From the NCBI RefSeq assembly GCF_001945605.1, contig NZ_MPKA01000034.1:1-32000 (forward strand): a stretch of DNA of 32,000 bases, written 5' to 3'. Of this stretch, positions 6,511-32,000 are shown piece by piece. Positions within the stretch are counted from its first letter, which is position 1, and the number at the start of each line of letters is the position of its first letter. Under the pieces are notes generated by a model. That model was not told the DNA's origin. It saw nothing but the letters and a program-made list of their open reading frames with translations, and made no database searches. The translations under genes and the position numbers were made by a program. The stretch is from Dubosiella newyorkensis. Lineage in GTDB: Bacteria > Bacillota_I > Bacilli_A > Erysipelotrichales > Erysipelotrichaceae.

Positions 6511-7713
6511 TCAATGATTATAATCGATTTTTTTCGTTTTGAATAGAGGAAATTGAGCGGAGGCATTTAGGATCATCAAAAACAAACACCCTGTGGGCAA
6601 GAAATTCAAGGTCACATCCAATAAGCCGTGAATTAGCGCGATACAATAAAAACTTACGATTAGCGCGAATAAAGGATAATTCTTTTCGCGTTTATACATG
6701 TTGATCTGCTCATGGAGCAGCAATCCTACATATCCGATCAAAAGAAGGGTACCTAGGATCCCATAGGATAAGATACAATCGATCAAGATATTGTGAGCGT
6801 GCGGGGCTTTATGGGCGTGAAGCCGTCGATACACTAACGAATACGTTTGAGGACCTTGCCCGAACCAAGGATGTTCTTGGATGCCGATCCAGGATGCTTT
6901 CCAAATTTTGAGGCGCGATGAAAAAGTCGACATTTGATCAAAGCGCGGTATAAGCTGCGGCTTCCAGCTGATCAAAGCGGCCACGATCCCTTCTAAGAGC
7001 AAGGAGACGTAGAACCAGACTTTTTCTTTCGAAAGCAAGAAAAAGAGAGGGATGATGATCACGAAAGGCAATATAGCCGTCCTACAGCCAGTTAAATACA
7101 GCATAAACAAATTGAGGAAGCCAGTTCCAATATAAAAGGCTCGATGGATCGCTTTTTTATGAACGATAAAGCTATAGATACAAAAACAAAGGACAAATTC
7201 GATCATCGTCGCATAAAAATTCGCGTTATAAAAAGTAGCGGCGATTCGATCCTTCGGTTTATTCATGACCACAAAATCAAAAAAAGGATTCCCTAGACGT
7301 TTTGATATCCCATAAAATTCAACGAGTCCATAGATCGCGCATAGCCAAGATAGAAGCAAGACTTCGAGGATGATCATTTGAAAAAGTCTCATCGACAAAG
7401 CGCTTCGATAATAGGCGATAAATAAACCGATCAACAAAAAGCCAAAAACATTCAGCAAGCCGATCCAATTTTGATTGACGATCGATACGATGCATTCGAG
7501 GCCCACAAAGCTATAAAGCCATAATGCGCCTGGCTGATCCTTGATCCAAGCAAAGGAGCCCGTTTTGATCCATTCGTAAGCCAGGATCACTACGAGAAAA
7601 GCGCCACCGATCTGAAAGGGTAAAAACAAACAAAAAGTCGCGAACAAGATCGATCGTTCTTGTTTGTTCAATTCATTCCAAGTTTTCTGAAAAGTGTGTA
7701 AAATGTTTCCCAT
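6511..7713 (-). CDS. O-antigen ligase / Wzy_C-like polytopic membrane protein
   Basis: About 10 predicted TM segments with a Wzy_C-like loop (RTAILPF...,GQGPQTYSLVY, HAHNILID). The start is set to the ATG at 7713, because the longer track ORF begins at a GTG inside the tRNA-Thr terminator hairpin. Confidence 0.7.
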   Translation of the reverse strand: MGNILHTFQKTWNELNKQERSILFATFCLFLPFQIGGAFLVVILAYEWIKTGSFAWIKDQPGALWLYSFVGLECIVSIVNQNWIGLLNVFGFLLIGLFIAYYRSALSMRLFQMIILEVLLLSWLCAIYGLVEFYGISKRLGNPFFDFVVMNKPKDRIAATFYNANFYATMIEFVLCFCIYSFIVHKKAIHRAFYIGTGFLNLFMLYLTGCRTAILPFVIIIPLFFLLSKEKVWFYVSLLLEGIVAALISWKPQLIPRFDQMSTFSSRLKIWKASWIGIQEHPWFGQGPQTYSLVYRRLHAHKAPHAHNILIDCILSYGILGTLLLIGYVGLLLHEQINMYKREKNYPLFALIVSFYCIALIHGLLDVTLNFLPTGCLFLMILNASAQFPLFKTKKIDYNH

Positions 7714-7754
7714 GTCTTTTATTATTATCAATTTATAGTAAGAATGCAACTTAC

Positions 7755-7780
7755 GAAAAAAAGCCTTCCTCACGGAAGAC
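7755..7780 (-). terminator. Rho-independent terminator downstream of tRNA-Thr
   Basis: The minus strand reads CTTCC-GTGA-GGAAG followed by GC and T7 (A-run 7756-7762 on +). The stem is short, so confidence is moderate. Confidence 0.5.
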
Positions 7781-7793
7781 TTTAACGACTTGA

Positions 7794-7869
7794 TGGTGCC
7801 GACGATAGGACTTGAACCTACGACCTACGCGTTACGAGTGCGTTGCACTACCAACTGTGCTACGTCGGC
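7794..7869 (-). tRNA. tRNA-Thr (anticodon CGU)
   Basis: The reverse complement folds by hand into a 76-nt cloverleaf. Acceptor is GCCGACG/CGTCGGC, D-arm GCAC-AGTTGGTA-GTGC, anticodon loop CTCGTAA (CGT), T-arm GTAGG-TTCAAGT-CCTAT, and CCA is encoded. Confidence 0.92.
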
Positions 7870-7880
7870 ATCTGTTAGAT

Positions 7881-7909
7881 ATTCTAGCAGATGCCGAGTA
7901 TATTTTCAA
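7881..7909 (-). promoter_or_regulatory. Sigma-A type promoter for tRNA-Thr
   Basis: The minus strand has TTGAAA (7904-7909), a 17-nt spacer and TAGAAT (7881-7886). The -10 ends 11 nt upstream of the mature tRNA 5' end. Confidence 0.7.
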
Positions 7910-7923
7910 TGCTTAAAACAAAT

Positions 7924-9273
7924 TTATTGAATGGTGTTCAATTCATTTTGATACGCTTCAATTTGCTGCTGCAAATAAGAGATCGTTTGATTGTTCGTGT
8001 CGATCGCTGCCTGCACATCTTCTCCGGCCGCTTGATCTGCGAGCAAGGATGCGTTATAGGCTTGAGCGTCATTTAATTGCGAAGTCAGTGATTCGATTTG
8101 GGCTTCTAAATTTGCCTTGCGTTCTTCTTTAGCTGCTTGTGCTGCTTGATTGGCCGCCTCTTGATTGGCTGCGTCTTGAGTAGCGAGAAGTGTCGCGAAA
8201 CTTTGTTGCGACTGTTCGATCGCGATTTGGTCGATCTTTTGTTTGAGGGCGTCCGAGAGCGCGTTATACCGATCACGATAGTTGACGATATTTGCTTTAT
8301 CCGCGTCATCTTTTGTCGACCAGTTCGAAATATAGGCTACGAGCTCTTGATATTCTGGCTTCGTTTCATCCTCTTGCTGTGTCTTCAATTCTTTCATACT
8401 AGCAAGCTGACTCGTAAATGGCTGCGTCGTTTGTTCGATAAAATACTCGTTGATCTTTTTCTTTTGTTTTTCGAGCATCTCGTCATAGCTGGATTCTAGA
8501 TCGATGATTTCCATTTTCTCCGCTTCTGAAAGCATGTCCCATTCATCCGCGTATTCCACAAGTTTTTTGTAGGTCGCTTCTTGTTGCGCGTTGGTGATGT
8601 TGTTTGGATCATAAACAGCGACTTTATAGGTATAGCCTCCTAGCAACAGTACGAATACGATCACGAACGCGAAGATCTGCTTGCGGTAAGGTTTGAGGTT
8701 CTTGATCCATTCAGGGGGTTGTTTCGCTTTTTTTGGAGCTCCCTTTTCTTCTGCTTTCTTTTGTTCTTCTTTATTTTTTTCCGTTCTAGAGCGGATCGGC
8801 TGATCCAAGGCTTTATTTCTTTCTTTTTTGGTTTTTTCCTTTTTCTTTTTAACAGGTTTGAGATGAGTTGGCTTTTTCGATTCCTCTTTGTTTTTTTGTT
8901 CATGATGTTCTATAGAAGTATAGATCGAATTGAGCGCTTCATTGTTTTGGAGAGGATCTTTTCGGATCGAAGAAGAGGTGAATTCATCGATATCCTTCTC
9001 TTCATCAAAATCGGTTTCATTAGCATATTGTTTCTCTTCCTCTTCGATAGGAAGTTGTCCTCTTTCTTGGCGAAGCAGGTCAAGAGCACTCGAAAGCGTT
9101 TTTTCCACTTGTTTTTTTTGGGTCGACGAAAGTGGGCTGCTGTTTTTATTTTCGTTCTTTTCTTCTGGATATAGAGCCATTTCTGTCTTTTTATGAAGAA
9201 GAGCTTTTGCGAAGTCGTCGATCTGCTCTTGATTGTTTTTATTTTCTGGATTAGTGTTTTTATTCATCTGCAT
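7924..9273 (-). CDS. Lys/Glu-rich single-pass membrane protein with C-terminal coiled-coil ectodomain (hypothetical)
   Basis: 449-aa ORF. The N-terminal ~200 aa are low-complexity K/E/N-rich, followed by one TM helix (IFAFVIVFVLLLGGYTY). The C-terminal region is helical and Q/A/E-rich (AANQEAANQAAQAAKEERKANLEAQIESL...). SD GGAGGA lies upstream. No family recognised. Confidence 0.7.
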   Translation of the reverse strand: MQMNKNTNPENKNNQEQIDDFAKALLHKKTEMALYPEEKNENKNSSPLSSTQKKQVEKTLSSALDLLRQERGQLPIEEEEKQYANETDFDEEKDIDEFTSSSIRKDPLQNNEALNSIYTSIEHHEQKNKEESKKPTHLKPVKKKKEKTKKERNKALDQPIRSRTEKNKEEQKKAEEKGAPKKAKQPPEWIKNLKPYRKQIFAFVIVFVLLLGGYTYKVAVYDPNNITNAQQEATYKKLVEYADEWDMLSEAEKMEIIDLESSYDEMLEKQKKKINEYFIEQTTQPFTSQLASMKELKTQQEDETKPEYQELVAYISNWSTKDDADKANIVNYRDRYNALSDALKQKIDQIAIEQSQQSFATLLATQDAANQEAANQAAQAAKEERKANLEAQIESLTSQLNDAQAYNASLLADQAAGEDVQAAIDTNNQTISYLQQQIEAYQNELNTIQ

Positions 9274-25737: not shown

Positions 25738-26281
25738 AATATTTTTGATATTCAGCAATATAGGAAAGGATTTCTTCGATCGAATCCGAAATAAAATACA
25801 TCCGCAAAACATCTTCCTTCATAAAACCATTCTCGACGCCTTCGATCAGCAGCGTGTTGAGAGGATCGAGGGAGTGGTCGATGTTATAAAGACAAATCGG
25901 CTTATCGAGCTGTTCGAGCTGCTTCAAAGTCAAGATCTCGAAAAACTCTTCGAAGGTTCCTATCCCTCCTGGCGTGACGATAAAACCGTCTGCCAATTGT
26001 TCCATTTTTTCTTTTCGCTCGCGCATCGTATTTGTATAAATAAATTCAGTGCAAGAGTCGGATAGCGCTTCCCATTTTTTGAAAAACGTAGGAGCGACTC
26101 CAATGCTTTTTCCATTCTTTTTATTAACGCCTTGAATAAAAGCGCCCATCATGCCTGTCGAACCGCCTCCAAAAACGAGTGTCCAGCCTTTTTCAGCTAG
26201 CGCTTCGCCTAATTGGACTCCTTTCTTGATATAGAGCGGCTTAATTTCATTGCTGCTTGCTCCGTAAATACAAACTTTCAT
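25718..26281 (-). CDS. LOG-family (TIGR00730) Rossmann-fold nucleotide-binding protein
   Basis: GGGSTGMMG and the LOG signature PGGIGTFEEFFE are present in ~187 aa. The 3' end overlaps the response regulator start by 20 nt, and the 5' end overlaps the upstream membrane-protein gene (ATGA). Confidence 0.85.
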   Translation of the reverse strand: MKVCIYGASSNEIKPLYIKKGVQLGEALAEKGWTLVFGGGSTGMMGAFIQGVNKKNGKSIGVAPTFFKKWEALSDSCTEFIYTNTMRERKEKMEQLADGFIVTPGGIGTFEEFFEILTLKQLEQLDKPICLYNIDHSLDPLNTLLIEGVENGFMKEDVLRMYFISDSIEEILSYIAEYQKYYADLDR

Positions 26282-26856
26282 AAATTATCCTCCTTATATG
26301 TCCATAGATTCCATAGATAAAGTGCGATGATGATCGCCCAAAATGAGCGACCAAACAATACAAATGTCAAAAACAATTGAGTCCAAGCGATCTCGTTTCG
26401 AGCGCCTGAAAAAAAGTAGATAAACAAACCTCCGATAAGCAAGCTTCCGCAGCCGGCTAGAAAAGAATCAAGGATCAAAAACAAGGAAACGATCCATATC
26501 GTCTGTACAAGACAGATCAGCCCTTGGTCTTTGAAGCTTTTTATTTGAAATGGAGGAATGTGAAAGGGCCAGATTGTTTGATAAACAATAGATATCCCTA
26601 GTCCATACGCTAGACAGATCGAAACTTCCATCGCTTCGGGTGCTATGCTTGCGATCATCAAAAGCATTCCTATTCCAAACAAGGAATAGGAGCGCAAGAC
26701 CTTTTCTCCGATCAACATTCCTGAACTACAATATAGAAGGATTTGTCTTAGGTCAGGAACTTTGAGGAGATGAGGCGCGTGATTTACGAAAACGACAAAG
26801 CCCAAAATACAAAAAAGAAAAGAAAGAAACCACTGTCGGGTTCTTTGAGTTTGCAT
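26278..26856 (-). CDS. Polytopic membrane protein (hypothetical, 192 aa)
   Basis: About 6 hydrophobic segments. It is the first gene of the membrane protein-LOG-RR-HK string. No family recognised. Confidence 0.6.
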   Translation of the reverse strand: MQTQRTRQWFLSFLFCILGFVVFVNHAPHLLKVPDLRQILLYCSSGMLIGEKVLRSYSLFGIGMLLMIASIAPEAMEVSICLAYGLGISIVYQTIWPFHIPPFQIKSFKDQGLICLVQTIWIVSLFLILDSFLAGCGSLLIGGLFIYFFSGARNEIAWTQLFLTFVLFGRSFWAIIIALYLWNLWTYKEDNL

Positions 26857-26902: not shown

Positions 26903-26926
26903 GAAAAAGAGGGTTTAATCCCTCTT
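26903..26926 (-). terminator. Rho-independent terminator after lgt
   Basis: The minus strand reads AGAGGG-ATTAAA-CCCTCT followed by T5. The lgt stop codon lies in the loop. Confidence 0.65.
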
Positions 26927-27679
26927 TTCTCGCTTTTTTAATATAAACCATAAAATCAGCGCACTTGCGAACAAGAGCAACGAAATGATTTGCGATGTGG
27001 AAAAGCTTCCAATTTCCCCCCGAACAAGATCGCCTCGAAAATATTCGATGATAAATCGTCCTATACTATACGCAAACAAATACCATAGGCCAACTTCTCC
27101 ATGGAACGTATTCTTTTTCTCTTTGACTAGCCAGATCAATACGAAGAAAAGCAAGAAGTCAAAAGCTGAAGAAATCAACTGCGTCGGAAATAAAGGGATT
27201 CCCGCTGGAGCGAGGGAGCCTTCTGGAAAGACAAGTCCAATCGGAAGATGGGTCTCTACTCCATAACAGCATCCTGCAAAGAAACAGCCTAATCGGCCAA
27301 ACCCTTGGGCTAAAGCGACGGAAGGGATGATCAAATCGACTTGTTCTAAAAAATTAAGATGATACTTTTTACAATAAAGATAGCCTCCAAGCAATCCTCC
27401 AAGGATTCCTCCATATACGACCCAACCACTCACTAGATCGAACAAGATCGCTGGATCCTGCAAAACTTCTTGAAATCGTGTGATACAATAAAGCAGTTTG
27501 GCTCCGATAAACCCTGTGATCACGAAAAAGATCGCCATAGGTTCTAGATGAGATATGTCGATACCGAGTTTTTTTCCTCTTTTTTCGGTAACAAAGAATG
27601 CGGATATTATACCGATCACATAAAACAGTCCATATGTATGGGCCGTGAATGGTCCTATCGTAAATAAATCATTATACAT
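26915..27679 (-). CDS. lgt: Prolipoprotein diacylglyceryl transferase
   Basis: Lgt signature GRLGCFFAGCCYG plus the YGLFYVIGI and PTQL motifs. The start is set at the ATG at 27679 (MYNDLF...), which is preceded by GAGGTG. Confidence 0.9.
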   Translation of the reverse strand: MYNDLFTIGPFTAHTYGLFYVIGIISAFFVTEKRGKKLGIDISHLEPMAIFFVITGFIGAKLLYCITRFQEVLQDPAILFDLVSGWVVYGGILGGLLGGYLYCKKYHLNFLEQVDLIIPSVALAQGFGRLGCFFAGCCYGVETHLPIGLVFPEGSLAPAGIPLFPTQLISSAFDFLLFFVLIWLVKEKKNTFHGEVGLWYLFAYSIGRFIIEYFRGDLVRGEIGSFSTSQIISLLLFASALILWFILKKREKRD

Positions 27680-27787
27680 TGATTCACCTCTTTTCGATGA
27701 TTCAAATTTTACAGAATTGAATTTATAAAGCAAGCAGTTTTTATTTCCTCTTCGATTTACGTATCATTATTAGAAAGGGAGTCTATT

Positions 27788-28711
27788 ATGCATTCAAACA
27801 ATCGATCGTCTATTTTATATGCTGGTATCTTTTTGTTTCTTTATTCGCTGTTCGCTTTGATCTTGATGCTTCGATCCTCGCTGTTTCCTGGTCTTACCAT
27901 TTTACAAGTTTCTATCGTAGTCGTTTTAAGTGATTTTACGATCCTTCTTTTCGCCAAGAATCATAAGATCGCATGGATTTTTTATGGATTGATCCTGATC
28001 TTGATCAGTGTGTTCATTTCACGTCTTTACATTGTAGACCAAGAACTGAAAGTTTTGCAACCAAGTATAGCAAACCAATTTGAAATTCGTACGCTTTACG
28101 CAAAAACCCAAGATCCTGTATTAAATACGATTGGCTTTCTTAGCCAAGATGAGAAGGAATTAGAGGAACGTTCTGCTCTGTTTTCAAATATTGAACGTAT
28201 TTCTTTCTCTTCAAAGAAAGAGTTATTCGATGCGCTTGATCAAAATAAGATCCAGGGTGTTGTGATCGATCCTTCTCAAAGCGAAAAAGGACTTGTTGCT
28301 TTGGAGAGCTTCGCCTATTCGATCCCTGAATTTGGGCCCGTGAAAAATGTGGACCTTCTCAAGAATATATCCACGATCTTGATCAAAGATAAAAATGGAT
28401 TCAGCTTGTTGCAGATCGATCCGAGTCATCATTCACTTCTAGTGAGAAAGCACTTAAGCTCTTTTGATCAAAAGAGCTGTCAAAATAGCTTAGGCTCGAT
28501 GCAGGCTTGCAGCGAAGAAGAACTTGCTCTTCCGATCAATTATGCGATCGATCTTAAGATCGAAGAGCTTGATTTTTTCCAGTGGCAAAGGATCCCGTTA
28601 TTTTGGAATCCTAATCTTGATCAGGAAAACGTATTAACGAATATGAGCGCTTCTTCTATGAAAGATCTGTTTTTATTGCCGCTCGATACGTACTCTAATA
28701 TCACACGGTAA
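27788..28711 (+). CDS. Membrane protein with LCP (LytR-CpsA-Psr)-like but apparently degenerate ectodomain (tentative)
   Basis: Three N-terminal TM segments. Segments ILIKDKNGFSLLQIDPSHHSLLV and INYAIDLKIEELDFF resemble the LCP core strands, but the usual Arg/Asp residues (SiPRD) are not evident. SD AAGGGAG. Confidence 0.45.
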   Translation: MHSNNRSSILYAGIFLFLYSLFALILMLRSSLFPGLTILQVSIVVVLSDFTILLFAKNHKIAWIFYGLILILISVFISRLYIVDQELKVLQPSIANQFEIRTLYAKTQDPVLNTIGFLSQDEKELEERSALFSNIERISFSSKKELFDALDQNKIQGVVIDPSQSEKGLVALESFAYSIPEFGPVKNVDLLKNISTILIKDKNGFSLLQIDPSHHSLLVRKHLSSFDQKSCQNSLGSMQACSEEELALPINYAIDLKIEELDFFQWQRIPLFWNPNLDQENVLTNMSASSMKDLFLLPLDTYSNITR

Positions 28712-28826: not shown

Positions 28827-28928
28827 TATTCATAATTTGAAACAATGGATTTTAGGGATGTTTTTCTTTTATCTATAAGTTAAAGAATACATTATTATAA
28901 GATTTTATAATTGGATGCAACAGTTTAA

Positions 28929-28937
28929 TGATATAAT
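28929..28937 (+). promoter_or_regulatory. Extended -10 element upstream of the regulator gene
   Basis: TGATATAAT (TGn + TATAAT at 28932-28937) lies in a very AT-rich intergenic region, ahead of GGAGAAGGA/GGTGG SD-like sequence and the ATG at 28960. Confidence 0.4.
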
Positions 28938-28959
28938 CGTGGAGAAGGATGGTGGTTTA

Positions 28960-30124
28960 ATGATCGATATTCCAAAAGATGAAAAAGTACAGGTTGGAAA
29001 AGCCATCGATTTTTTACGAAAGAAAGAGTTTAAGAAAAATCCTTCTTTTAAAATCGAATGCTTTATCGAAACCATTTGTTCTAAAGCCACCTATGTCAAG
29101 CTTAGAAAAATCCCATTAAAGGAAAGTGAGATTTATGATTCTCTTTTAGCAAAATTGAATCTTATTTATCCTTATGATCCTCGAGAGCAGACGAAGCTTT
29201 TTCATACTGAGAAACTCATGGAAGATGCATTCATCCATAGAGACCCCGACGAAAAAAAAGCTTCTAGATTCATTGATCAACTATTATTCTACTTCCCATT
29301 CGGTCTATGACCGGCTAAAGTATATTGCTTTTAAGGATTCCGCTATGTCTGTTCCTGAATTACTGGCGATTTACGAAATTGTCCAATCGCCGATCAGAGA
29401 AGTGATCATGAACAGGATCATTGACGTTCTTGAAAGCATGCCTCCTTCTGCAATGTCTGACTATATTCAAAGCCGTCTTCATTTCCATACGATTCGCAAT
29501 CAGATCGATTACCTGTTTCTGATTATTCGAAACAAGCATTATTATCAAGCTGTCGCTTTGTGCGAATCTTTATTACGTTCTGCTACTCTCCCGATCGATC
29601 GAGCAAAGATCCGGATTGCCAAACTAATTTTGCTTCACCAAATTGACCCTCGCCATTTTGATTTGGAAGCTCAAGCTCTTTCTAACGATCCTTCCTTCCC
29701 TTTGGTCAGAGAGGATTGGATCCATATTTGCGCTTTTCATGCCTACAATCAAAACGATTATGATCGAGCCCAGCTGCTTTTTGAAGAAGAGATCAAAAAC
29801 CAAAAAACTTTTTTTCCTGCTATTTTGTTTCTTGCCCATATGCATGATCCCAAAATAGAATTTAGTCAAGAAGTTTTTTGTCGTTACAACATCCAAGATT
29901 ATCCAGTCGCATATCAACACTTATACACATATTTCAAAATGAAATTTTCGCACAGTTCTTTCTCTATCCTCGAAAGTTACTTATGGAACATTTGCCGAAA
30001 AGAAATCAAAGAGTTTTATCCAGAAAATATCATCATCCGATTGATTCACGATGAACTGGAATGGATCAGCGAAAATACAGGAAACAGGACAAAACTATAT
30101 ATGTTCCATCAACAGTTTGATTAA
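28960..30124 (+). pseudogene. HTH + helical-repeat (RRNPP/Rgg/NprR-style) transcriptional regulator interrupted by a frameshift in an A8 tract
   Basis: Frame 1 (to the stop at 29308-29310) encodes an XRE-like HTH N-terminus (VGKAIDFLRKKEFKKNPSFKIECFIETICSKATYVKLRK). Frame 2 is open from 29159 to 30124 and encodes a TPR-like helical domain. The frames overlap around the A8 run at 29252-29259, and removing one A would join ...HRDPDEKK to LLDSLINYYSTS... into a ~387-aa protein. Confidence 0.65.
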
Positions 30125-30230
30125 ACTTTTTTTATAAAATCATATAATTTATATGTTTTATTTTTTTCCGTTCAATTTTTTTCCTATTCATTTTTTTCTT
30201 TTAGAATCAAATTGTAAGGAGGAAAGAAAA

Positions 30231-30413
30231 ATGGAATTAGTTTTTATCGGCGATAGTTTAAAGACAAATATTGTTAATGTTGCTTGTCAGTATATATTTA
30301 GTAAGAAATGCCCCTTATTATATATAAAAAATCCAAACTATCGATGTAATAGAAAGAAAATGATTGATGATTTCAGTGAAATAGTGTTTGCGTTGTTTGA
30401 TTCGGAGAATTAA
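30231..30413 (+). CDS. Small Cys-containing peptide/protein (60 aa), candidate exported or signalling peptide precursor
   Basis: Near-ideal SD AAGGAGG (30216-30222) lies 8 nt before the ATG at 30231. Sequence: MELVFIGDSLKTNIVNVACQYIFSKKCPLLYIKNPNYRCNRKKMIDDFSEIVFALFDSEN. The stop lies 2 nt before the ABC exporter start, and the exporter SD (GGAGAA) sits inside its last codons. Confidence 0.55.
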   Translation: MELVFIGDSLKTNIVNVACQYIFSKKCPLLYIKNPNYRCNRKKMIDDFSEIVFALFDSEN

Positions 30414-30415
30414 AC

Positions 30416-32000
30416 ATGAAAGTGCTTAATATTCGGAGAATACAAATATTCACCTTGTTTTTTTCTATTCTAGATTTGCTGTGTTTATACGGATTCATCC
30501 AGGCGATCCAGATCTTTATGGATCGTTTGATCGCAGGCCATCGAATTGACCAAAAAGACCTACTAATTTTTTTAAGTTTACTGAGCGGAATGATACTTTG
30601 TGGTTTGTGCTCTCAATATGGATTTAATTTGCTACCCGTACTAGGCAAGAAAAAGCTGATCATTCAATATGAAACTCAGCTTATGAAAGAGGATCATTCT
30701 TTCTTCGACCAGCACTCTACAGCCTTTCTAATGTCACTATTTCAAAATGAAATCAGTCTTCTAGGTCAACAAAAAGCGATATTTCCGGTCGTTTTTCTCT
30801 ATCAAAGCATTGCGCTGACGGTTGGTACTGCTTTTTTGCTGATTAACGAATGGAGACTAGCCCTTGTCCTATTCGCCATTATTGGATTTTGTTTTGTGCT
30901 CACTCGTATATTGTCAAAAAAAATCGCAGACAATACCCAGAAAGTTTATAAAGAAAAGAACAATCTCTTTCAGGTTCTCCACGAAGATATCACAATGCAT
31001 CGGCTAATCCGTTTTTTAAATAAAGAAGATTATTTCTCTTTGCGTTTTAGAAAGGTACTAAATGATCGACTGATCCCGATTGAAAAGAAACAAGCAAATC
31101 TTTCTACACAGTATATCACGATCTATTCTGTCCTTTCTCGAGCTCTTCCTCTTTTAGGCGCTGGAATCGGATTGATCTTCATGTCGTTAGAGGGGATGGA
31201 GCCCGGAAAAATTCTTTCCACTTACGCGCTGATTTCTTTGATTCAGGAACCGATCATGCAGCTGGCAGAAACAAGGACCCAAAAAAATACGATCAATACT
31301 CTTCAAGAAGCGATCAAACAAGTTTTTATACAACATCAAAAAGACAGGAGAGTTGTTGATTCGTTCGGATCTATCCAAAAAACCGATATCCAGATCGAAC
31401 AGTTTCAATATCCTGATTCTTCAGTGATTCTGACTGGTCTTTGTTTTTCGATCCTGCGTGGTCAACATACAAAAATTGCCGGACCTAGCGGGGTAGGAAA
31501 AAGTACATTGATGGAGTTGTTGATGGGAGTCCAAGGTGGAAGAAATACCCATATCTTGTTCAATGAAACAGAAAACTCAATGTTTTCCCGAAAATGGTAT
31601 TCACAACACATTTTGATGGTTGACCAAAAACCGAAGATTTTCAAAATGTCTATTCTTGAAAATATCACATTGGGAGATACGTTTTCCAAAATCGATCTTG
31701 ATGAGATCTTGTATACTTGTATCCTTCAGAACATTATTGATGAACATCAAGATCAGATTGTCGATGATGAAAATGGATTAAGTCTTGGGCAGGCTCAACG
31801 AGTATCGATCGCCCGAATGCTTATTCGTAAGCCTGATGTTCTGATACTTGACGAACCGGTAAGCGCCCTCGATGAAGTCACGACATCTTTGATGATTGAT
31901 CGTCTCAAACAATTTATTGAACGTTATCATATCACTTTGATCATCTCATCCCATAATCCAGCTATAAACACTCTATGTCTACAAACGATCGACTTGAAGA
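30416..32000 (+). CDS. Fused TMD-NBD ABC exporter (type I exporter fold), 3' partial
   Basis: This ORF is not in the ORF track because it runs off the window. My hand translation from the ATG at 30416 found no stop through 32000. It has ~6 TM segments in the first ~300 aa, then Walker A GPSGVGKST, Q-loop MVDQKP, variant signature LSLGQAQR, Walker B VLILDEP and H-loop SSHN. There is no N-terminal C39 peptidase domain. Confidence 0.85.
   Translation, partial: MKVLNIRRIQIFTLFFSILDLLCLYGFIQAIQIFMDRLIAGHRIDQKDLLIFLSLLSGMILCGLCSQYGFNLLPVLGKKKLIIQYETQLMKEDHSFFDQHSTAFLMSLFQNEISLLGQQKAIFPVVFLYQSIALTVGTAFLLINEWRLALVLFAIIGFCFVLTRILSKKIADNTQKVYKEKNNLFQVLHEDITMHRLIRFLNKEDYFSLRFRKVLNDRLIPIEKKQANLSTQYITIYSVLSRALPLLGAGIGLIFMSLEGMEPGKILSTYALISLIQEPIMQLAETRTQKNTINTLQEAIKQVFIQHQKDRRVVDSFGSIQKTDIQIEQFQYPDSSVILTGLCFSILRGQHTKIAGPSGVGKSTLMELLMGVQGGRNTHILFNETENSMFSRKWYSQHILMVDQKPKIFKMSILENITLGDTFSKIDLDEILYTCILQNIIDEHQDQIVDDENGLSLGQAQRVSIARMLIRKPDVLILDEPVSALDEVTTSLMIDRLKQFIERYHITLIISSHNPAINTLCLQTIDLK

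Follow-up and report, generated by a model that had tools for sequence, protein, structure and literature searches.

The 32,000-nucleotide stretch of Dubosiella newyorkensis DNA analysed here (the window; contig NZ_MPKA01000034.1, positions 1 to 32,000) ends in a regulator-like gene, a 60-residue open reading frame (ORF) with three cysteines and a gene for an ATP-binding cassette (ABC) exporter. A preliminary description of this DNA took the small ORF for a signalling or modified peptide in its own right. Comparison with public contigs of related bacteria instead makes it very likely that these genes are what is left of a decayed four-gene cluster (regulator, precursor peptide, radical S-adenosylmethionine (radical-SAM) maturase and exporter) for a radical-SAM ribosomally synthesized, post-translationally modified peptide (RaS-RiPP), and that the small ORF is a fusion of precursor and maturase sequence made by a deletion. 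The layout given in the preliminary description was confirmed on the sequence: the order of the genes, the AAGGAGG Shine–Dalgarno (SD) sequence 8 nucleotides ahead of the small-ORF ATG, the exporter ATG at 30416, 2 nucleotides past the TAA stop of the small ORF, and the exporter SD within the last codons of that ORF. The AAGGAGG heptamer occurs once on the forward strand of the window. The features of the locus, with helix-turn-helix (HTH) and tetratricopeptide-repeat (TPR) elements abbreviated, are listed below.

28960..30124, forward strand: regulator-like gene of an HTH/TPR-like family; a pseudogene in the window strain through a +1 frameshift, intact (387 residues) in other strains
29252..29259, forward strand: A8 homopolymer, the frameshift site (A7 in intact alleles)
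30125..30215, forward strand: T-rich promoter region of the precursor gene with the conserved GTTCAATTTT and a -10-like TAGAAT; homologous across all lineages
30216..30222, forward strand: AAGGAGG SD sequence, the precursor gene's own
30231..30413, forward strand: chimeric 60-residue ORF, the deletion scar (translation, blastn and tblastn)
30231..30289, forward strand: precursor remnant, codons 1–19 (MELVFIGDSLKTNIVNVAC), including the NxxC motif N16-V-A-C19 (blastn against L025)
30290..30301, forward strand: 12-nucleotide junction in place of 1,229 bp of the intact cluster (gap between two blastn segments)
30302..30413, forward strand: 3' remnant of the maturase gene, consisting of the final 36 codons (KKCPLLYIKNPNYRCNRKKMIDDFSEIVFALFDSEN) plus a new stop codon (tblastn)
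30404..30407, forward strand: GGAG SD sequence of the ABC gene, within the former 3' end of the maturase gene, in support of translational coupling
30416..32000, forward strand: ABC exporter with fused transmembrane and nucleotide-binding domains (TMD and NBD); 528 of its 531 codons lie in the window

The intact form of the locus is present in a sister species whose regulator is 78% identical to that of the window. Contigs L025–L029 carry, in this order, the regulator (387 residues), a 22-residue precursor placed at the SD sequence, a hairpin, a radical-SAM/SPASM maturase (427 residues) and the ABC exporter (531 residues). The precursor reads MELIFIGDSLKTNVVNVVCHIK followed by a stop codon and shares a 242-nucleotide gap after the regulator gene with the terminator-like hairpin (L025 2626–2650), which is probably a leaky terminator. 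The maturase matches PF04055 and Fer4_12, contains the motifs CNFRCLYC and GGEPLL and ends in ...CKTCNLRPLCEDKKCPLLYIKNPNYRCDRKKMIDDFAEILLVLFDSENSKYERT. Its NCBIfam matches are to radical-SAM/SPASM maturases of RiPPs (CefB, 1e-45; TIGR04463, 1e-35; PapB, 5e-25), all under the family cut-offs; the CefB match extends over residues 1–398 of 427 and scores 156 bits against a cut-off of 600. The maturase and exporter genes overlap by 14 nucleotides. Contig L015 shows only MELIFIGDSLKTNVVNVVCHIK and its stop codon, followed by the hairpin and a new ORF; a homology search with the first 69 residues of this ORF gave no matches, and the gene was identified through the longer contigs and a weak match to CefB. 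In the intact cluster the regulator would act on conserved sequence upstream of the promoter of the precursor gene, the hairpin would cause the precursor to be made in excess, the maturase would modify it and the exporter would secrete the product or confer immunity.

The window aligns with this cluster in two blastn segments, each at 84% identity (window 30001–30289 with L025 2308–2597, and window 30302–30520 with L025 3827–4047), and tblastn places maturase residues 386–421 on window 30303–30410 (86% identity, E = 9e-16). The 60-residue ORF is composed of precursor codons 1–19, the 12-nucleotide junction and the last 36 codons of the maturase gene, all in frame, and the homology of its residues 25–60 to the 3' end of the sister maturase gene was upheld when checked by alignment. 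The 1,229 bp that are missing held the precursor stop codon, the hairpin and maturase residues 1 to about 385. A deletion in the window lineage would thereby have fused the 19 precursor codons in frame with the last 36 of the maturase. No further maturase homologue was found by tblastn in the window or in L001, and the modified peptide cannot be made from the window locus. Translation of the fusion ORF probably still takes place whenever the promoter is active, and its main plausible role would be the delivery of ribosomes to the exporter start codon.

The properties that had made the small ORF resemble a peptide gene follow from this origin. Its SD sequence is strong because it was originally that of the precursor, and the 2-nucleotide gap to the exporter and the exporter SD within the last codons of the ORF are there because the old maturase–exporter junction was retained. 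The three cysteines and the signal of purifying selection were likewise inherited from the two parents: Cys19 is the sole cysteine of the precursor, whereas Cys27 and Cys39 come from the Cys-rich (SPASM-like) C-terminal region of the maturase. What had been described as a basic core and an acidic-hydrophobic C-terminus is the maturase tail. The suggestion that the locus is RiPP-like is sound for the ancestral locus, but not for the 60-residue ORF, which is a fusion of two genes. For annotation, a false lead is removed, in that a cysteine-containing small ORF with a perfect SD sequence is a gene-fusion scar; such scars can mimic peptide genes, inherited signals of purifying selection included. 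A reading of MELVFIGDSL as the remnant of the N-terminus of a GDSL hydrolase was also rejected, as the homologue in the sister species is a complete 22-residue gene.

The same four-gene order is found in a distant relative, L031 (GCA_963631155.1), with a regulator that is 31% identical. Here the SD site is followed by a 24-residue precursor, MELLETKIKTLEDQELNIGCIIIH, and then by a hairpin, a radical-SAM gene and a 529-residue exporter. The maturase and exporter are 38% and 37% identical to those of the sister species; this divergence is in line with that of the regulator, and the four genes have therefore travelled together. The precursors of the sister species and of L031 (22 and 24 residues) share MEL... 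and ...NxxC... and end 3–4 residues after the cysteine. The radical-SAM gene of L031 is split into three ORFs (7399–8655; 233, 59 and 120 residues), and is probably itself decaying, unless the breaks are frameshift errors in a metagenome-assembled genome.

In a neighbour-joining tree of the regulators rooted on L031, lineages that carry only the regulator and the exporter form a ladder below the pair made up of the window and the sister species, with bootstrap values of 98–100 at the key nodes. If inheritance was vertical, this topology, based on one outgroup and a distance tree, would imply several independent complete losses. The ancestral state thus appears to be the full four-gene cluster, with the ORF-less loci derived from it. 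A first reading of the alignment, in which the small ORF was an insertion between the SD sequence and the ATG of the exporter, was dropped, since the intact cluster and L031 show the ORF-less loci to be derived.

The preliminary description had expected a genuine small gene to be conserved among related loci and to show purifying selection. A search of 5.8 billion proteins with the 60-residue ORF returned two matches only, both from the same species: a D. newyorkensis fragment (98% identical) and a 64-residue allele from L020 whose N-terminal half differs. No Pfam or NCBIfam family was matched by the ORF. Five related lineages (regulators 52–61% identical to that of the window; D. muris and Firmicutes bacterium M10-2 are among them) have no ORF between regulator and exporter; the regulator is followed by about 105 nucleotides with the same T-rich region and the AAGGAGGA SD sequence, and then directly by the exporter ATG. 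Conservation is thus lacking, and on this count the proposal of a genuine peptide gene fails. Purifying selection can be detected, in that dN/dS between the window species and the sister species is 0.094 for the 36-codon maturase tail (9 synonymous and 6 non-synonymous changes) and about 0.14 for the 19 precursor codons (5 and 4, respectively), compared with 0.129 in the regulator gene and 0.114 in the exporter gene. However, the signal in the small ORF is inherited from its two parent genes and is uninformative on the fusion product. Within the species, the exporters of two scar-bearing strains differ by 5 synonymous and 4 non-synonymous changes against a neutral expectation of about 78% non-synonymous (one-sided binomial p = 0.03), weakly suggesting that constraint on the exporter continues.

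Loss of the maturase has recurred, by three different deletions, by insertion sequences (ISs) and by frameshifts, and the regulator–exporter pair persists, sometimes over long evolutionary times. The three deletion alleles encode 60 (window), 64 (L020) and 23 (L010) residues at the same site. L010 has a 1,346-bp deletion through an AAAATG microhomology that leaves only MIDDFAEILFVLFDSEN... after the SD sequence, and this event is recent, because L010 is 95–97% identical to L025. L020 is a third scar allele, in which an 88-nucleotide filler (L020 545–632, equivalent to window 30238–30312) keeps the ORF open; no source for it was present in any sequence retrieved. Contig L024 is inactivated by a frameshift.

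Further observations concern these alleles and their surroundings. The filler of L020, a D. newyorkensis-like strain, encodes the transmembrane-like YIVFIIGIMVIMLIGFYIF. An IS21 element (IstA/IstB) lies at two different positions of the maturase gene in L021 (11165–14020) and L022 (11165–14152), and in L023 (2759–4422) the whole downstream part is replaced by an IS1595 transposase and an aminoglycoside-nucleotidyltransferase-like gene (PF10706). The region just past the regulator is a mobile-element hotspot in the sister strains.

Homology of the promoter and SD region extends to every lineage, L031 included. GTTCAATTTT and TA(N)AAT elements are conserved between the regulator stop codon and the SD sequence in L025, L007, L009, L012, L017 and L031, and this region is a candidate operator and promoter for the regulator; the regulator presumably controls the precursor promoter. 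A scan for consensus sigma-70 promoters did not call the region 30125–30215. In the lineages that have only the regulator and the exporter, the precursor promoter and SD sequence are fused directly to the exporter ATG. A terminator scan found no terminator-like site between the 60-residue ORF and the exporter, and RNA folding of the ORF–exporter region gave no structure beyond chance (z = -0.17).

Two overlapping ORFs in different frames (28915..29310 and 29174..30124) represent the regulator in the window and are halves of one frameshifted gene. Alignment with six public contigs shows A7 and an intact 387-residue ORF in L001, L002, L004 and L005, and A8 together with the single-nucleotide polymorphism haplotype of the window in L003. 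Since L003 is an independent assembly with the same haplotype, the frameshift is a real strain allele. The true start of the regulator is the ATG at 28960 (MIDIPKDEK...); in other strains a stop codon follows the ATG at 28915. The sister species has an A6 run at the frameshift site of the window. It also has many truncated regulator ORFs on dozens of contigs (P0013, P0015, P0017, P0019, P0021 and P0023; cluster of P0002), which comprise 259 residues from Met129, 238–240 residues, or 288 residues with a foreign C-terminus, suggesting that the regulator is often disrupted there too.

Scans of the regulator against Pfam and NCBIfam returned zero families, and they include no sequence membership in the described RRNPP family models (Rgg, PlcR, NprR, Rap, PrgX and AimR). 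An AlphaFold2 model (pLDDT 80, pTM 0.76) predicts an all-helical TPR-like superhelix with a long helical-repeat domain, preceded at the N-terminus by four short helices (residues 12–65, pLDDT 36–68). A Foldseek search of the Protein Data Bank with this model retrieved TPR superhelices, the best global matches being NprR (5dbk and 4gpk; TM-score 0.43–0.50) and AimR (6hp3); these matches have TM-scores of 0.40–0.50 overall, weak E-values of 0.005–0.06 and about 10–12% identity. A family profile built from 27 members hits consensus TPR proteins at profile positions 270–300, with E-values between 3e-16 and 1e-5, and a scan of the 27 members gave TPR and HTH_31 matches only, in one member each. P0060 passes the TPR_1 gathering score (32.7 versus 27.8 bits), and P0054 matches HTH_31 at residues 16–74 with E = 0.0034, short of the threshold; for P0057 there is a match to HTH_3 (E = 0.087). 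Searched with a profile of only the first 80 residues, the solved structures yielded no HTH protein, and a regulator profile search against solved structures returned noise only. The HTH/TPR-like description is supported, with a putative HTH part and with peptide binding a candidate function. Of the earlier description of the regulator as RRNPP-style, the TPR-like fold stands, with NprR and AimR as best structural matches, and membership in a described RRNPP sequence family does not. The family comprises eight clusters at 90% and 40 representative clusters at 50% identity, and its named members are from Dubosiella. Profile scans of genome and metagenome collections returned only 2 and 3 loci, respectively; the family is therefore narrow.

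In the window as in all relatives, the gene immediately downstream is that of the ABC exporter, which is coupled; the exporter presumably exports the product or protects against it. Its domains are ABC_membrane, from residue 12, and then ABC_tran. A domain scan found no C39 peptidase domain in the exporter, and the peptide has no double-glycine motif, both as described earlier. The NCBIfam matches of the exporter are generic and far under the cut-offs, and those to models of peptidase-containing ABC transporters (PCATs) cover the TMD–NBD part only. The exporter, of 531 residues, is still intact and ends 11 nucleotides past the window. Beyond it, public contigs carry genes for UPF0154, EamA, ParC and ParE on the opposite strand, and then PlsY, FtsK and, between them, a ComK-like gene; the extended contigs show neither a maturation enzyme nor a protease, a second half of the ABC transporter or a gene for immunity downstream of the exporter. 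The suggestion that maturation enzymes or a second ABC subunit might lie past position 32,000 is thus not borne out, as opposite-strand housekeeping genes begin there once the exporter ends.

Streptococcal RaS-RiPP clusters under quorum-sensing control, such as the str cluster for streptide and about 600 shp/rgg-linked clusters (PMC9389541, PMC13361665), combine a regulator, a short precursor, a radical-SAM enzyme and a transporter, which is exactly the order in L025 and L031. The helical-repeat fold predicted for the Dubosiella-type regulator is also RRNPP-like. However, none of the sequence models for Rgg, PlcR or NprR matches this regulator, a separate pheromone gene like shp was not seen, the transporter is without a peptidase domain and the hosts are Erysipelotrichaceae from gut metagenomes; in the window, moreover, the maturase has been deleted and the cluster is dead. 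The radical-SAM enzyme (CxxxCxxC) expected beside a short precursor is present in L025–L029 and in L031, whereas the window retains only its last 36 codons, and the precursor in the window keeps codons 1–19 with the NxxC motif but has lost its native C-terminus and stop codon.

The Asn-x-x-Cys motif that defines the NxxC subfamily of RaS-RiPPs (PMC13361665) occurs near the C-terminus of all three precursors, each with a single cysteine: the window remnant has NVAC, the sister species NVVC and L031 NIGC. Only two residues of this motif are fixed. By analogy, formation of a Cys–Asn thioether on the NxxC motif is a reasonable guess for the reaction of the maturase. The CefB, TIGR04463 and PapB thioether maturases (of the ranthipeptide and sactipeptide type) resemble the sister maturase in the CxxxCxxC motif and the Cys-rich, SPASM-like C-terminal region, but the substrate here would be a 22-residue peptide with a single cysteine rather than a Cys-rich repeat peptide. 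With the RRNPP receptors NprR and AimR the regulator model shares a layout of four helices at the N-terminus and, after them, a TPR-like superhelix; in contrast to those systems, the small gene beside the regulator is a RiPP precursor and not a classical exported pheromone. The window ORF, as a two-gene fusion, does not have the pheromone feature of an RRNPP pair, and in the intact relatives the small gene directly upstream of the maturase has the position of a RiPP precursor. Nor are the features of the C39/PCAT exporter class found, the TMD starting at residue 12 and the peptide having no GG motif.

A search of the literature for Dubosiella together with radical SAM or RiPP showed no paper on such a cluster in its first ten results. 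The kind of cluster, a radical-SAM RiPP with regulator and transporter, is known; the taxon and the regulator family are previously undescribed for such clusters. The Dubosiella-like Erysipelotrichaceae thus have a newly uncovered radical-SAM peptide cluster, with a regulator family absent from Pfam and NCBIfam, an NxxC precursor of 22–24 residues, a SPASM-type maturase and an exporter.

The deletion-fusion account draws on the observed homology and breakpoints, on the architecture of the intact cluster and on the recurrent independent loss of the maturase. Several points nevertheless weigh against it. The intact cluster was not found in the species of the window, so that the ancestral state there is taken from the sister species and L031, and the origin of the 12-nucleotide junction can be traced only uncertainly. 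A maturase paralogue may lie elsewhere in the D. newyorkensis genome, as the sequence read comprised the 32-kb window and 20-kb loci. The frame is open to the exporter start in all three deletion alleles, which hints that the fusion ORF is not wholly neutral. Were the 60-residue ORF a genuine precursor or signalling peptide, sensed by an RRNPP-style regulator and exported by the ABC transporter, this would accord with its strong SD sequence and tight coupling to the exporter, with the TPR-like fold that matches the regulator to NprR and AimR, and with the recurrence of the exact ORF in many public assemblies; from the same start codon, moreover, a real small peptide was encoded in the ancestral locus. 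Such a peptide is nevertheless very improbable, given an ORF that is chimeric from two genes, a maturase that is absent from the window, the lack of homologues outside the species and of any ORF in the five related regulator–exporter loci, and alleles that differ grossly (60, 64 and 23 residues) where the real precursor has only 22–24. BmrB, encoded upstream of bmrCD in Bacillus subtilis, is a leader peptide for ribosome-mediated attenuation, and the sole support for an analogous regulatory leader here is that the small ORF immediately precedes the gene of an ABC exporter. Attenuation of the exporter by this means is extremely improbable, as neither a terminator nor an antiterminator would fit into the 2-nucleotide gap, the terminator scan is empty, the fold is no more stable than that of shuffled sequence (z = -0.17, as above) and the ORF is documented to have arisen by fusion of two genes. 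That the junction is an artefact of assembly or sequencing is almost certainly not the explanation, and nothing speaks for it: the same junction is present in independent assemblies derived from ENA, Logan, JGI and NCBI, about 100 blocks of public assemblies contain the exact ORF, and the A8 frameshift recurs in an independent assembly with the same haplotype.

A further proposal supplements the deletion-scar account and is no substitute for it. It holds that selection keeps the fusion ORF open as an upstream ORF, in which the frame matters and the sequence does not, because exporter translation needs ribosomes that terminate beside its start codon. In the ancestral operon the exporter has neither its own promoter nor a strong SD sequence, and its gene overlaps that of the maturase by 14 nucleotides in the intact cluster. 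All three independent deletion alleles run in frame from the precursor ATG to the maturase stop codon, for which the chance is about 1 in 27, and the non-synonymous changes in the exporter within the species are below the neutral expectation. Against this, the alleles number just three, a well-spaced GGAG belongs to the exporter itself, the ORF–exporter region has no RNA structure beyond chance, and the lineages with total loss fuse the precursor SD sequence to the exporter ATG, so that an upstream ORF is dispensable. Selection for an open frame is possible, if on balance doubtful. Alongside the deletion-fusion account, it may tentatively be suggested, at a similarly low level of confidence, that the regulator and exporter are kept as an orphan 'sense-and-export' module that protects non-producers from, or eavesdrops on, an NxxC-type radical-SAM peptide of co-resident relatives, with scars remaining in frame as exporter translation depends on upstream ribosomes. 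If so, these loci would form a natural series of transitions from producer to immune cheater in a gut commensal. The locus offers a testable case, in a mouse-gut commensal, of production lost with export or immunity retained; the repeated loss with retention of the pair is its most interesting residue.

The surroundings of the locus vary. Two membrane-protein-like ORFs without a Pfam or NCBIfam family adjoin lgt in the window (27788–28711, forward strand, 307 residues, and 26278–26856, reverse strand, 192 residues). The flanks of the window and of the sister species differ on both sides; an upstream 307-residue gene common to the two was considered and rejected, as the two 307-residue proteins are unrelated. 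The regulator–exporter module occurs in at least five unrelated neighbourhoods (window 26915–28711 and L001 11940–17484 versus L025, L007/L009, L017 and L018), and therefore either the module has moved or the genomes are heavily rearranged. Finally, an 11-nucleotide direct repeat, ATTCGGAGAAT, flanks the exporter start codon of the window at 30400–30410, where it contains the exporter SD sequence, and at 30440–30450 (codons 9–12); the counterpart of the second copy in the sister species is ATTCGAACAAT.

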